Counted from the first letter of the stretch, positions 9,484 to 14,292 are shown. The stretch is 64,000 nucleotides of DNA from Bacteroidota bacterium (GCA_043787975.1 JAYVUK010000001.1:38347-102346); one strand, 5' to 3'. Notes: a model not told the origin generated them from the letters alone. Program-made: numbers and translations.

Positions 9484-11160
9484 ATGAAAGAGAATAACAT
9501 TATTAGTTTACTTGTCTTCCTGTTTTGCTTTAGTTGTGATTGCTACTCACAATGGAATCCAAATCCTTCTGTTAATACATCTGTTTGTGTTCAGCCGAAT
9601 GACCAACAGGGTGTTCGGCTTGTTACTGATGGAAAAGGAGGAGCAATTATTACGTGGACTGATTACCGCAATGATGTGACACAAAATTCAGGAGATATTT
9701 TCGTGCAGCGTATTGATAAAAATGGAGTGAATTTATGGACATCCAATGGCGTTAGTGTTTGCACCGATTCTTCTGACCAAACTGCTCAGGCAGTCGTTGA
9801 AGATGGAAAAGGAGGAGCCATCATGGCATGGACAGATTCACGGAACGGGAATAAGGATATCTACGCTCAGCGGATTGATTCTTCCGGCGTTGTTTTATGG
9901 ACTGCAGATGGCATTGGTGTTTCTGTGAAAATAAGAAGTCAGCAAGATCCGCATATCATTTCTGACGGGGCAAATGGTGCCATCATCGTTTGGGAAGATT
10001 CTGTCAATGGTTTATGGGATGTCTACGCACAACGGCTGGATGCTTCAGGGGTTGCCTTATGGGCGAGCGGAGGTGTGGTTGTTTGTTCTGCTGTGTTGTC
10101 TCAACTAAATGCAAGGTTGACAACAGATGGAAATGGTGGAGCCATTTTTACCTGGCAGGATTTCCGGAATACAGTGGATTACAATATATATGCTCAGCGT
10201 CTGAATTCTTCAGGCACACCGCAATGGACAGTAAACGGAATCATCATTTCGAATAATGCCGATACTCAGAACAATCCGAAAATAAAATCAGATGGTTTGG
10301 GCGGTGCTATTATCGCCTGGCAGGATAAAAGAAATGGAAACGATTACAATGTGTATGCGCAGCGAGTTAATGCATCGGGAGCTATTCAATGGACGAGCAA
10401 TGGAGTTGCCATCTGTAGCGCATTGGACAATCAGAGCGCGCTCGACATGGCAACCGATGGGATAAACGGAGCCATTATTTCCTGGAAGGATAATCGCAGC
10501 GGTAATTTAGACATCTATACACAGAGAATAAATCAGAGTGGATCCATTCAATGGACAGCCAACGGAGTTTTGCTCTCGACAGGTTCTGCTCCTCAAATAA
10601 ATCCGAATACTGTTGGTGATGGATTTGGCGGAGCAACCATTGTTTGGCAGGATTCAACAGCCGGAAACTGGGATGTCATGGCGCAACGAATTGATTCAAG
10701 TGGTGTGGTGCAGTGGACAGTGGGAGGAGAGGCGGTGGGAACGGCAGCCGGTAATCAAACAGATCCCAAAAACGTTTCGGATGGATCCGGCGGATGTATT
10801 TTCGCCTGGCAGGATAAAAGAAATAACACGGACTTTGATGTGTATGCTCATCATCTTTTTTCGAATGGAAGTGCACTCGGAATCAACGAAGAAACGAATC
10901 CTCTTGAAAGCGTCTGTTTCCCCAATCCTTTTTCTCAATCGACAATAATCAGTTGGCAAACGGCAAATCAAAATAGTCAAGGTTTCTATATTATAATATA
11001 CGATGTGAGCGGCCGGGTTGCATTTCAAAAAACAAAAATTGAAAATGACCGGTTTAAGTTTGAGAGGGGAAATTTAGAAAGCGGAATATATTTTTACGAA
11101 ATCAGATCGGAGCTTACTCATACAATTAGTTCAACAGGGAAATTTATCATCATCGATTAA
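9484..11160 (+). CDS. T9SS type A cargo with eight ~54-aa repeats (probable beta-propeller)
   Basis: 8 copies of xDGxGGAIIxWxDxR...DIYAQRxxxxGxxxWxxxG; C-terminal FPNPFS...GIYFYEI...GKFIII. Confidence 0.85.
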   Translation: MKENNIISLLVFLFCFSCDCYSQWNPNPSVNTSVCVQPNDQQGVRLVTDGKGGAIITWTDYRNDVTQNSGDIFVQRIDKNGVNLWTSNGVSVCTDSSDQTAQAVVEDGKGGAIMAWTDSRNGNKDIYAQRIDSSGVVLWTADGIGVSVKIRSQQDPHIISDGANGAIIVWEDSVNGLWDVYAQRLDASGVALWASGGVVVCSAVLSQLNARLTTDGNGGAIFTWQDFRNTVDYNIYAQRLNSSGTPQWTVNGIIISNNADTQNNPKIKSDGLGGAIIAWQDKRNGNDYNVYAQRVNASGAIQWTSNGVAICSALDNQSALDMATDGINGAIISWKDNRSGNLDIYTQRINQSGSIQWTANGVLLSTGSAPQINPNTVGDGFGGATIVWQDSTAGNWDVMAQRIDSSGVVQWTVGGEAVGTAAGNQTDPKNVSDGSGGCIFAWQDKRNNTDFDVYAHHLFSNGSALGINEETNPLESVCFPNPFSQSTIISWQTANQNSQGFYIIIYDVSGRVAFQKTKIENDRFKFERGNLESGIYFYEIRSELTHTISSTGKFIIID

Positions 11161-11162
11161 AT

Positions 11163-11564
11163 ATGAAAAAAAGATCATTACTACTAGTGCTATTCGTTTC
11201 TCTTGTAGTTGCATTCTCTGCCTGCAAGAAGGGGCCGGGTTCTGGCGGAACAACATCAATCATTGGCAAAGTATGGGTTGAAAAGTGGGATCCTGATTTT
11301 ATCGTCCATGCCGATACGCTCGATTATTGGGCCATGGATGCCGATGTCTACATCATTTATGGAGATGATGCAACGTATGGTGACCGGACCAAAACCGGAC
11401 CCGGTGGTGTTTTTGAATTCCATTACCTCCGTGAAGGGCATTACACGATTTATGTTTATTCGGATTCCCCTAATCCGGGTGGAAAAGTCGCTGTCATTAA
11501 AGAGCTTGATATTCCCGGCGACGGAACGACAGACATAGGAACCCTGACGATCAAAAAAAATTAA
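11163..11564 (+). CDS. Small lipoprotein with carboxypeptidase-regulatory/prealbumin-like beta-sandwich
   Basis: Lipobox FSA|C followed by KK; TGPGGVFEFHYLREGHYTIYVYS motif. Confidence 0.7.
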   Translation: MKKRSLLLVLFVSLVVAFSACKKGPGSGGTTSIIGKVWVEKWDPDFIVHADTLDYWAMDADVYIIYGDDATYGDRTKTGPGGVFEFHYLREGHYTIYVYSDSPNPGGKVAVIKELDIPGDGTTDIGTLTIKKN

Positions 11565-11569
11565 GGAAA

Positions 11570-12145
11570 ATGAAAAAGCGATTCATCGTTTTAGCAGGAT
11601 TTTGTTTGTTTTTTATTTTTAACGCATCATCGCAAAGCAAGAAAGATGTTAAGAAGCATGATATCAAATCCGTAACAGTTGCTGTGCATGAAATAGATGC
11701 CAATGGAAAAGAAATAATATTTACTGATTCGTATCAGAAGTTTGATAAAAACGGAAAATTGATTGAAGAAATTGAATACGATAAAACCGGTGTTTTTCGC
11801 AGGCATGAGTACTGGAAGTTCAATAGGAACAACGATGAAACTGAACATACAGAAAATGATGCAAAAGGAAGTATCTTAAAAAGAACGGTGACCGAGTACA
11901 ATTCAAATGATAAAAAAATATCGGAGACCATCTATGACGGGAACAATGTGATCACTGAAAAAATGCAGTTCACCTACAATCCTGATGGAGAGAAAGTGAC
12001 TGAGGTCACCTCAAACGGATCCGGAAAAGTTCTCAGCAAATCTGTTTTTACGTATGACAACAAAGGATTGAAATCAGGACGAAAAACTTACAATCCTACA
12101 GGACAACTGATCATGACTAAAAAATTCAGCTACGAATTTCATTGA
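11570..12145 (+). CDS. Exported protein with YD/MORN-like beta-hairpin repeats
   Basis: Signal peptide (..ASS|Q); repeated (F/Y)(D/N)xxG(K/N) turns at about 12/24-aa spacing. Confidence 0.7.
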   Translation: MKKRFIVLAGFCLFFIFNASSQSKKDVKKHDIKSVTVAVHEIDANGKEIIFTDSYQKFDKNGKLIEEIEYDKTGVFRRHEYWKFNRNNDETEHTENDAKGSILKRTVTEYNSNDKKISETIYDGNNVITEKMQFTYNPDGEKVTEVTSNGSGKVLSKSVFTYDNKGLKSGRKTYNPTGQLIMTKKFSYEFH

Positions 12146-12148
12146 CGG

Positions 12149-12916
12149 GTGGAGAACATCAAGGAGATACTGGAAATTTTTGCACCCATTACCTTAACGG
12201 AGATGAGTGAGAAGATGCTGATGAATCGTGTGGACACAAAATATGTTTTCCCGGCATCACAGATACCGTTATTCCTGGACCAACTAAAAGACGATTACCG
12301 TGTGCTGGATGTAAACGGTGTAAGGTTGAGCCGCTATGAATCGCTTTATTTCGATACAGAAAATCTCGATTTGTTTCACAAGCATCAGCGGGGCAGAAGC
12401 AACCGTCACAAAATACGCTACAGGAAATACGTGGAATCGGATTTGCATTTTTTTGAAATCAAATTCAAGAACAACAAAGGGCGCACCATTAAGGACCGTG
12501 TGAAACAGTATGCGATTGCGGACACCATCAGCAATGTCGCTGAAAAATTTCTTCACGAAAAAACTCCGATTCAATCGTCTGAATTGTTTCCGCAATTCTG
12601 GGCGAACTATTCACGCATTACACTGGTGAATACTGTTTTGGACGAGCGCGTTACACTTGATCTGGACATTGTGTTCAAAAAAAATAAGGATGAGTATGGT
12701 TTTGATGATTTGGTCATTGCAGAAGTCAAGCAGGAAAAATTTGTTTCATCTTCTTTTCTCAAACTGATGAAAAAATACCATGTACGTGAAGGATCAGTCA
12801 GCAAATACTGTCTTGGTGTGATTCGTATTGATAATTCCGTCAAGCATAATAATTTCAAACCCAATTTAAGAAACATTAATAAGGTACTGTATGGCAATTC
12901 TTCAGGTTCTAAATGA
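12149..12916 (+). CDS. VTC (polyphosphate polymerase) domain protein, CYTH/TTM superfamily
   Basis: NRVDTKY, SLYFDT, KIRYRKY, EIKFK, RVTLD, IAEVK, SKYCLG motifs. Confidence 0.88.
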   Translation: MENIKEILEIFAPITLTEMSEKMLMNRVDTKYVFPASQIPLFLDQLKDDYRVLDVNGVRLSRYESLYFDTENLDLFHKHQRGRSNRHKIRYRKYVESDLHFFEIKFKNNKGRTIKDRVKQYAIADTISNVAEKFLHEKTPIQSSELFPQFWANYSRITLVNTVLDERVTLDLDIVFKKNKDEYGFDDLVIAEVKQEKFVSSSFLKLMKKYHVREGSVSKYCLGVIRIDNSVKHNNFKPNLRNINKVLYGNSSGSK

Positions 12917-13514
12917 TTCAACTGTTGTAGACACAACATTCAGCTTGTTTGATAAATTATCTCCGAAATTTTTTATGCGGTTGGGAATCGACATTGCTTC
13001 CGTACTCGTGCTTGTTCGGTTCATTTATTTTCCGGCTCACAAAAGCAGGGAATATTTTTTTACTTTTTTTATTTTCAACCTGCTGATTTTCCTAATTACG
13101 TATTTGCTGAACAAAGTTGACATGAGTATGGGCGCTGCGTTTGGATTGTTTGCCGTTTTTTCAATGCTGCGATATCGTACCGAAGGCATCACGATAAAAG
13201 ACATGACCTATCTTTTTTTGGTGATCGCCATCGGACTGATCAATGCCGTTGCCAAAGGAAACTGGGATGAATTCCTGTTGCTGAATGCGATCATTCTCGG
13301 GTTTACCTACCTGCTCGAAAGCAATTTGCTGATGAAAAAGGAAACGACAAAAATTATTGAATATGAAAACATCGAACTCATCCGGAAAGAAAGACAAGGG
13401 GAATTGATCAGTGACTTGGAAAACAGAACAGGAATTAAAATCAACAGGATCAACATCAGTGAAATTAATTTCCTGCGTGATACTGCGATCATCATCATCT
13501 ATTATTACGAATAG
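12891..13514 (+). CDS. DUF4956 domain membrane protein
   Basis: GAAFGLFAVFSMLRYRT and KDMTYLFLVIAIGLINA motifs; several TM helices; overlaps the VTC gene by 26 nt. Confidence 0.88.
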   Translation: MAILQVLNDSTVVDTTFSLFDKLSPKFFMRLGIDIASVLVLVRFIYFPAHKSREYFFTFFIFNLLIFLITYLLNKVDMSMGAAFGLFAVFSMLRYRTEGITIKDMTYLFLVIAIGLINAVAKGNWDEFLLLNAIILGFTYLLESNLLMKKETTKIIEYENIELIRKERQGELISDLENRTGIKINRINISEINFLRDTAIIIIYYYE

Positions 13515-13535
13515 TTTTATTCGGCTTATTTTCAA

Positions 13536-14216
13536 GTGAAGAAAAAAATTCTTTTAGGGATACTTTATGTTTTTATTTTTTCTACTGCTTCTGCTCAGTA
13601 TGATGATGCAGGAATGTGGAATACATTTAGTGTTGAAAAGAAGCTGAAGAATAATTTCTCACTTCTTTTTACAGAGGAATTCAGGCTGAAGGAAAATTTT
13701 TCTCAGATCAATTTATTTTACTCACAGGCCGGAATAGGTTATCGTCCATATAGTTTTTTGAAAATTGAATTGCAATATCGCTTTATTCAAAAAAAAATGA
13801 TTGACGATTTTTACAGTTTCCGTCACCGGTTGATGCTTGATATAACGGTGAAGAAGAAGTATGGTAACTGGACTGGTTCATACCGTCACCGGTTGCAGGT
13901 AGAAGAAAGAAATATTTACTCGAGTGATAAGGGAGCCATTCCCGAATGGTATTCAAGAAATAAAATTGCTGTGAAATACGATCTGCATAAAAAAGTCACA
14001 CCTTATTTGTCGTGTGAACTTCGCTACCAGTTAAGCGATCCGCGAAACCTCGAGTCTGATCAGACATGGCACCGGGGCCGTTACGTAGCCGGAATGGATT
14101 ATGAACTAAACAAAAAGAGTACGTTCGGATTGTATTATCTCATCCAGCATGAATGGAATGTTTCCATTCCTGAAAACCTGTACATCGTGGGTTTAGAATA
14201 TTCACTTACGTTATAA
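13536..14216 (+). CDS. DUF2490 family outer-membrane beta-barrel protein
   Basis: Signal peptide, DAGMW start, alternating amphipathic strands, RHR motifs, C-terminal strand GLEYSLTL. Confidence 0.82.
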   Translation: MKKKILLGILYVFIFSTASAQYDDAGMWNTFSVEKKLKNNFSLLFTEEFRLKENFSQINLFYSQAGIGYRPYSFLKIELQYRFIQKKMIDDFYSFRHRLMLDITVKKKYGNWTGSYRHRLQVEERNIYSSDKGAIPEWYSRNKIAVKYDLHKKVTPYLSCELRYQLSDPRNLESDQTWHRGRYVAGMDYELNKKSTFGLYYLIQHEWNVSIPENLYIVGLEYSLTL

Positions 14217-14217
14217 A

Positions 14218-14292
14218 AGTTCTTAGTCCTTAGTTGTTAGTTCGGAGACTCTCTTTTTTTTCTTTGAACTCCGAACGAATGACTACCAGCTA
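14218..14292. repeat. Heptamer tandem repeat with degenerate inverted arm (AGTTCTT family)
   Basis: AGTTCTT AGTCCTT AGTTGTT AGTTCGG ... TGAACT CCGAACG AATGACT, between convergent genes. Confidence 0.6.

Follow-up and report, generated by a model that had tools for sequence, protein, structure and literature searches.

The window analysed here is a stretch of 64,000 nucleotides, one strand, from a Bacteroidota bacterium (GCA_043787975.1 JAYVUK010000001.1:38347-102346), and our subject is a block of six open reading frames at positions 9484-14216. All six run in the same direction, with spacings of 2, 5, 3, -26 and 21 nucleotides, and they carry the domains that the original prediction had described from the sequence alone. 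We found that this feature is real and widespread, and that five of its genes, coding for a small lipoprotein, a hairpin protein, a VTC-domain enzyme, a DUF4956 membrane protein and a predicted DUF2490 barrel, are conserved together in many Bacteroidota. Our proposal is that the operon may export a phosphoryl donor, here probably polyphosphate made by the VTC enzyme, to secreted CotH kinases, a reading that we put slightly below an even chance. It builds on gene content, on predicted compartments, on a Vtc4-type active site and on joint gain and loss with CotH; from these we infer the individual steps of the mechanism.

A conserved core and its CotH partners

Gene neighbourhoods were read at 160 VTC loci, 40 from relatives, 80 from the closest GTDB records and 40 from a sample of the phylum. 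Three duplicates and one locus under the profile threshold were dropped, leaving 156 loci, 124 of them with at least 2.5 kb on both sides; neighbours were counted in these 124 as profile matches within 3.5 kb of VTC. Because close kin are plentiful in these samples, the counts apply to this lineage rather than to the phylum. DUF4956 lies near VTC in 114 loci, DUF2490 in 88, the lipoprotein in 86, the hairpin protein in 78, CotH in 40 and the propeller protein encoded by the first gene of the block in 8. Most loci that miss DUF4956 have divergent copies, visible at a looser threshold. The order lipoprotein-hairpin-VTC-DUF4956-DUF2490 is found in 67 of the 124, and the hairpin gene, absent from nine loci that retain the lipoprotein and DUF2490, is dispensable in some. 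Altogether, the five genes of this order make up a conserved core, and the synteny of the lipoprotein and hairpin genes elsewhere bears out their inclusion in the original prediction.

The same does not hold for the first gene (9484-11160, plus strand), which had been counted as part of the system. It encodes a 558-residue protein with eight propeller-like repeats of about 54 residues (TIGR04275, E-value 1e-13, under the cut-off) that is sorted by the type IX secretion system (T9SS; PF18962, E-value 8e-9). Within 3.5 kb 5' of VTC in the 90 lipoprotein-bearing loci, this upstream slot holds CotH 37 times and the propeller six times. Since relatives of the propeller are present in three of five genomes without the module, we regard it as a variable passenger, and the six-gene unit was rejected as a conserved system on the count of 8 in 124.

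The block is flanked by rluD and a convergent mqnE, with no pel genes among the flanks and no anomaly of GC content across the six genes. In a genome of the same genus (G002) the rluD-mqnE spacing is about 0.2 kb and the entire block is absent; this absence, together with the five-gene order shared by 67 of 124 loci, indicates that the linkage is not due to chance. The G002 spacer (L084:1445-1610) contains inverted repeats of a GAAAGTG-type unit at the place of the block. VTC is present in none of three same-genus genomes and as one gene in this genome. In a quick tree the window's VTC pairs with that of locus L034 (support 95), apart from most members of the family, so that both retention and re-acquisition of the block are possible.

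Several variants of the module were also encountered. In five loci (L127, L129, L131, L137 and L142) the lipoprotein, hairpin, DUF4956 and DUF2490 genes lie on one strand and VTC is convergent just past DUF2490, as if displaced from the operon yet still adjacent; at least four of these genomes hold a second, standard copy. An archaeal record (Ca. Methanoperedens, L133:5910-7277) has VTC-DUF4956 alone; its VTC shares 53% identity with that of the window and falls within Bacteroidota sequences, which points to transfer or mis-binning. A full-length homologue of the hairpin protein (G006:C10:198444-199001, E-value 8e-34), in a genome without a VTC or CotH match, is a possible remnant. A 778-residue frame around VTC in G283 was rejected as a fusion, being low-complexity upstream read-through in GC-rich DNA.

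That no CotH kinase accompanies this copy, as had been remarked from the sequence, is correct for the operon and misleading for the genome, because CotH is the best genome-level partner of the module. Three CotH genes lie elsewhere in this genome, all T9SS-tailed (one tail below the Pfam cut-off), and two of the three proteins share 53-76% identity with CotH from operon-linked genes in relatives. Among 61 relatives, cross-read by hand from tables, 50 have both VTC and CotH (the unpublished G050 among them), ten have neither, one has CotH only (its genome is 58% complete) and none has VTC only. The ten double negatives belong to five genera and three families, and DUF4956 was absent from all five that were tested. 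VTC-positive relatives have 1-15 CotH matches per genome, mostly unlinked. The loss of these unlinked copies together with the module suggests dependence rather than mere co-regulation. Across 301 phylum genomes, also cross-counted by hand, CotH was found in 119, DUF4956 in 91 and VTC in 48; all 48 VTC genomes hold both DUF4956 and CotH, and CotH is present in 88 of the 91 genomes with DUF4956.

The same families are documented in Gram-positive bacteria. The cotH gene, a polyphosphate polymerase gene and DUF4956 lie beside Gram-positive pel genes (PMC7112168), VTC and cotH occur in NELoc-2 of C. perfringens (PMC2879425), and deletion of the membrane-protein gene or of cotH in S. intermedius lowers aggregation by more than 50% in sputum medium (PMC12345266). 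DUF4956 also appears in expression tables (PMC10434189, PMC13454231). In Bacteroides thetaiotaomicron, which served as a control genome, VTC, DUF4956, DUF2490 and CotH each gave a score, and PMC10434189 lists BT3498-99. The operon shares with this accessory cluster the same three families, linked in operon or genome, and is a two-membrane version of that published, unexplained trio. It differs in its two-membrane host, in the added lipoprotein, beta-meander and DUF2490 genes, in the unlinked cotH and in the lack of flanking pel genes. PMC12345266 states that the trio was not found outside pel loci; the loci read here, among them a Deinococcus plasmid record with CotH-VTC-DUF4956, contradict that statement.

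The VTC enzyme and its membrane partner

The VTC gene (12149-12916, plus strand) encodes a predicted cytoplasmic VTC/triphosphate-tunnel enzyme of 255 residues (PF09359, E-value 1e-27), with the VTC domain at residues 26-224; no SPX domain matched in any of the six proteins. The basic tunnel motifs of the original prediction (TKY, KIRYRKY, EIK and SKY) are all confirmed in the sequence. A profile of 40 homologues matches yeast Vtc2 (3g3o) and Vtc4 (3g3q) with E-values of 0.003-0.004. By profile, K31, R90, R92, K105, Y154, R156, E192, S218 and K219 align, in order, to Vtc4 K200, R264, R266, K281, Y359, R361, E426, S457 and K458, where Vtc4 numbering is the 3g3q chain index plus 185 and the second and third alignment stretches score weakly. 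These nine Vtc4 residues are named critical in 10.1101/2023.01.27.525886, which also describes the non-catalytic Vtc2 and Vtc3 as lacking K458. Over 157 VTC sequences, eight of the nine are conserved in 153-157 and Y154 in 124; K219, the K458 equivalent, is kept in all 157. With all nine catalytic residues kept, the active site is Vtc4-like.

Hydrolytic tunnel enzymes have an acidic patch that binds a second metal (PMC4641920). Two of the three acidic ligands of this site are basic here (R27 and K194), as in Vtc4, but the position of D29 stays acidic; K115 is basic as well and may correspond to AtTTM3 E90. The window's enzyme shares with the CYTH/TTM enzymes (AtTTM3, ygiF and CyaB; PMC4641920) the tunnel family, the metal-1 glutamate E192 and basic substrate-binding residues, whereas their ExExK motif is replaced by R-x-D/E-x-K in 156 of 157 sequences and the E171 equivalent is a lysine (K194) in 156 of 157. 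The VTC protein is predicted to be a polyphosphate polymerase. Judged by its residues, it stands nearer to the polymerase than the hydrolases do, without being identical to it, and AtTTM3 shows that tunnel likeness can mislead. The genome also carries PPK1 and PPK2, so VTC would be unneeded for ordinary polyphosphate storage, and a role as a replacement for PPK1 was rejected. Our literature search, which left most subscription papers aside, surfaced no characterised bacterial VTC enzyme.

At the enzyme level the system appears to resemble yeast VTC, but it is not a member of that complex by its gene content. Common to it and the eukaryotic VTC complex (Vtc4/Vtc3/Vtc1; PMC9911596) are the nine-residue tunnel domain, basic exit residues and a small membrane partner. 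Unlike the eukaryotic complex, it lacks both an SPX domain and a fused membrane part, its partner is MgtC-like, an acidic residue (D29) stands in the tunnel, periplasmic and outer-membrane genes are added, and DUF4956 also occurs without the enzyme.

The DUF4956 gene (12891-13514, plus strand) overlaps VTC by 26 nucleotides and encodes an inner-membrane protein of 207 residues (PF16316, E-value 2e-53), whose model shows four membrane helices plus a small cytoplasmic domain of alpha/beta type (predicted local distance difference test, pLDDT, 81). Aligned with hhalign from a diverse alignment, it matches MgtC with a probability of 95.9% (E-value 5e-9, 197 columns), and from a close-relative alignment with one of 1.4%. 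Against a bacterial DUF202 alignment the probability was 6.5% over 23 columns, and DUF202 has no match anywhere in this genome. Hence, in view of these DUF202 and MgtC values, DUF4956 was rejected as a Vtc1 homologue, and the idea of a Vtc1-type channel subunit did not survive the comparison. The membrane domain and C-terminal cytoplasmic domain of MgtC both align within the 197 columns; unlike MgtC, to which it is 11% identical, DUF4956 has its own invariant G-L...R-x-R-T motif, and none of 40 members matches PF02308 (MgtC) at an E-value of 0.05. PMC12345266 had already stated the DUF4956-MgtC link. Across 43 diverse DUF4956 sequences, G85, L86, R94 and R96 are each kept in at least 90%; R94 and R96 are also shared by both VTC clades and by seven of seven VTC-less copies checked. 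Foldseek returned no match to the model at an E-value of 0.001, and a fold search gave middling helical rows only (best Z 9.3, root-mean-square deviation (rmsd) 2.9, 84 aligned residues). A predicted complex of VTC with one DUF4956 chain scored 0.00, which weighs neither way.

Proposed routes across the envelope and their possible cargo

Three further genes of the core would act beyond the inner membrane. The predicted lipoprotein (11163-11564, plus strand, 133 residues, no named family) belongs to the core of the DUF2490-type module; its lipobox-like Cys21 and a K-x-x-G-x-G-G motif are invariant in 34 of 34 aligned sequences, and Pfam gave weak beta-sandwich-type scores (E-values 0.02-0.09). 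Tandem-domain versions exist in L045 and L060; longer fused forms were looked for and not found, a negative of little weight. The hairpin protein (11570-12145, plus strand, 191 residues) has a signal peptide and is predicted to be periplasmic. Its AlphaFold2 model (pLDDT 93) is a single-layer, YD/RHS-like beta-meander of 12 strands, and the best VIA-align rows were RHS shells and a functionally uncharacterised Bacteroides protein (Z 11.4 with 141 aligned residues at rmsd 3.2; Z 10.0 with 116 at rmsd 4.2). Unlike RHS/YD-repeat proteins, in which a long closed beta-shell surrounds a cargo domain, it has only 12 strands in 191 residues and no cargo domain, the fold likeness being local; its N-terminus is basic and conserved (QSKK..KK) and its relatives are unnamed. 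Neither of these two genes has a match over a curated Pfam cut-off, the hairpin gene giving a weak YD-repeat score. DUF2490 (13536-14216, plus strand, 226 residues; PF10677, E-value 3e-24) is a predicted outer-membrane beta-barrel, classified as a putative porin without function in PMC4827864 (TC 1.B.81). Among 34 sequences R50, R82, R141 and R182 are invariant and R96, R117 and R119 are kept in at least 90%; median net charge is +6, and the conserved arginines sit on alternating strands. This pattern invites comparison with the KdgM and OprP porins, although the profile matched KdgM with an E-value of 0.48 only. The arginines support the earlier suggestion of a barrel that guides or uses a polyanionic product, and the protein is a candidate anion conduit. 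Profiles of DUF4956, the hairpin protein, the lipoprotein and DUF2490 found nothing below an E-value of 0.005 in the PDB.

The quick tree sets apart another VTC clade (support 99), and here a second exit was found: a membrane-fusion protein of about 355 residues and HlyD/EmrA type stands beside VTC-DUF4956. Its identity rests on a profile match to EmrA (E-value 3e-14) and on Pfam HlyD_3 in 9 of 23, as the adaptor profile itself was built from those same genes; a TolC gene lies alongside in one locus. Near VTC, DUF2490 is present in 88 of the 124 loci, the adaptor in 21 and both in none. In adaptor-type genomes DUF2490 exceeds the Pfam cut-off in 2 of 22, on other contigs. HlyD and TolC parts belong to export systems. 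That one core is joined to two unrelated exits speaks for movement across the envelope, and the adaptor-TolC pairing favours export, in line with the direction originally proposed. The sister clade resembles EmrAB-TolC, MacAB-TolC and HlyBD-TolC in that DUF4956 is accompanied by an adaptor and in some loci by a TolC-like gene, while the window version has DUF2490, the lipoprotein and the hairpin protein instead. Neither an adaptor nor a TolC gene is found at the window locus; the genome's six adaptor-like genes are on other contigs. A protein that weakly matches phosphate-selective porin O/P (L213:7925-8926, E-value 1e-4), encoded after VTC-DUF4956 and before cotH, is a possible third exit.

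In the mechanism that we envisage, VTC would lengthen a chain by transferring to it the gamma-phosphate from ATP, and a DUF4956 oligomer would carry the product through the inner membrane, with R94-x-R96 on the cytoplasmic side as a possible entry. The hairpin protein and the lipoprotein would span the periplasm or hold the barrel, the arginine-rich DUF2490 barrel would release the product, and CotH proteins from unlinked genes, exported by the T9SS, would consume it. The envelope route would be the constant part and VTC an optional loader. A wider claim, held a shade more cautiously still, is that DUF4956 may be the inner-membrane core of an undescribed class of phosphoryl-donor exporters with interchangeable exits (DUF2490 barrel with lipoprotein and beta-meander; adaptor with TolC; none in single-membrane cells), which would move polyphosphate by way of a Vtc4-type polymerase, or ATP when VTC is absent, and power CotH, some of which would be polyphosphate-dependent protein kinases. 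No account of phosphoryl-donor export surfaced in our literature search, within its limits given above.

A number of observations weigh against polyphosphate export to CotH. At the enzyme, all 157 sequences have an acidic residue (D or E) at the D29 position, which is Thr in Vtc4 and Glu in the hydrolases, and in AtTTM3 shared tunnel residues failed to predict polymerase activity. DUF4956, as far as alignments tell, is unrelated to Vtc1/DUF202 and related to MgtC, a regulator described as working through PhoR and ATP synthase. The strands of the hairpin protein alternate K and E (median net charge +3) with no clear basic groove, and the DUF2490 arginines may be buried in salt bridges, since a preprint reports buried charge networks in 238 family members and names no function (10.64898/2026.07.29.741452). 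The split between barrel and adaptor is a single contrast, because it falls on one deep branch of the VTC tree. Among CotH-positive genomes, 31 of 119 have no detected DUF4956, and CotH uses ATP in vitro (PMC7821199). In S. intermedius, deletion of the polymerase gene still permits aggregation and Pel production, and the membrane-gene and cotH deletions shift Pel levels in opposite directions (PMC12345266). Lastly, 43 of the 91 DUF4956-positive genomes have no detected VTC, 40 of these keep CotH, and one locus without VTC, in a single-contig genome, has DUF4956-DUF2490 converging on cotH, with PPK2 present and PPK1 missing.

VTC is not an obligatory partner of DUF4956, contrary to what had been supposed: a wider VTC profile at an E-value below 0.1 found 5 of 5 controls and none in 25 test genomes (15 of them single-contig), and a separate test of 5 genomes likewise gave none. 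As CotH persists in 40 of the 43, the envelope route would be the constant part and the cargo may be ATP. The kinase link runs through DUF4956, which makes ATP a serious alternative. In such a scheme, which we consider unlikely on balance, the same route would export ATP to secreted ATP users, and VTC would play an accessory part, binding, gating or recycling nucleotide or contributing polyphosphate as a by-product. Consistent with it, 14 of 19 VTC-less loci have DUF4956 followed by an adaptor, 13 of these with a TolC-like gene of about 410 residues (E-value 6e-14 against the TolC of L224). In two loci (L308:6207-8667 and L309:6063-8494) VTC-less DUF4956 converges on a signal-peptide PPDK_N ATP-grasp protein (E-values 3e-32 and 6e-24), a candidate extracytoplasmic ATP user. 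The use of ATP by CotH in vitro fits as well, as do genomes G194 and G258, which have neither VTC nor PPK1. The ATP source is called an open question for spore-coat CotH in PMC7821199. ATP export leaves unexplained, however, why an intact Vtc4-type enzyme is translationally coupled to DUF4956 in most loci. VTC-less genomes also have other polyphosphate sources, with PPK1 in 25 of 27 tested and PPK2 in the other two (G194 and G258), and 34 of the 43 belong to one family. Two other loci (L303:7419-9868 and L304:7387-10155) have, after VTC-less DUF4956, genes for an unnamed secreted protein of 341-356 residues and for a purple acid phosphatase; these 341- and 356-residue neighbours have CotH-like motifs by eye and no score against the CotH profile.

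Improbable, in our estimation, is a role without any cargo, in which DUF4956 would be an MgtC-like regulator and the module would tune phosphate/ATP balance or envelope-polymer synthesis through protein contacts. Full-length homology to MgtC, itself acting on PhoR and ATP synthase, argues for it, as do the altered Pel amounts of the S. intermedius deletions (PMC12345266). A lone VTC gene without DUF4956, behind a family-2 glycosyltransferase and a response regulator (L122:4365-7771), is likewise in keeping with regulation. Pure regulation would not call for the outer-membrane barrel that one clade carries or for the efflux adaptor and TolC of another, and the MgtC match depends on the diverse alignment, falling to 1.4% with close relatives.

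Import or degradation of external polyphosphate or other phosphate compounds, by way of a porin, DUF4956 and VTC as a hydrolase or a reverse, ATP-forming enzyme, seems more improbable still. In its favour, other lineages encode nearby phytase-like proteins, purple acid phosphatases, a phosphate transporter and the weak phosphate-porin match, and D29 retains one hydrolase-type ligand; three alphaproteobacterial plasmid records carry DUF4956-VTC-phytase-like genes, once with a phosphate transporter. HlyD and TolC parts are known from export, though, most of the hydrolase acidic patch is now basic, and import would not account for the joint loss with secreted kinases. Least probable of all, we think, is polyphosphate exported for its own sake, as a surface polyanion, metal trap or periplasmic store with CotH as a co-regulated neighbour, which draws on the same active-site and conduit evidence and on the alphaproteobacterial loci, with no cotH within 7 kb, but must contend with unlinked CotH copies (1-15 per genome) that vanish wherever relatives lose the module.

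Flanking sequence and implications

A sigma-70 promoter and terminator scan performed at chance level (12 vs 13.5). At window:9430-9437, 47 nucleotides 5' of the first gene, TACGTTTA has one mismatch to the Bacteroidota -7 promoter consensus; the match is weak, because the region has seven comparable loose ones. Between DUF2490 and the convergent mqnE, a hairpin at 14217-14290 (no strand assigned; RNAfold -18.2 kcal/mol, a value without shuffle control) is a possible terminator, missed by the terminator scan. Farther out, window:15485-16756 encodes, on the minus strand by translation, a 423-residue signal-peptide protein with an HExxH motif, and window:5387-7939, upstream of rluD, is presumably a three-gene operon of a permease, an ABC ATPase and an MCE-like protein.

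Many Bacteroidota hold several secreted CotH kinases whose extracytoplasmic phosphate donor is unexplained. Our study adds the genome-level co-loss of the module with unlinked CotH, the place of the lipoprotein and hairpin genes in the core, the passenger status of the propeller and a VTC-less locus of the DUF2490 type. If the proposal of phosphoryl-donor export is true, bacteria would have a third way to polyphosphate in addition to PPK1 and PPK2, DUF4956 and DUF2490 would gain their first function, and one branch of the MgtC superfamily would turn out to act in transport. It would also explain how bacteria phosphorylate targets outside the cytoplasm, and a gene set gained and lost together with the CotH kinases makes the question of their donor testable.

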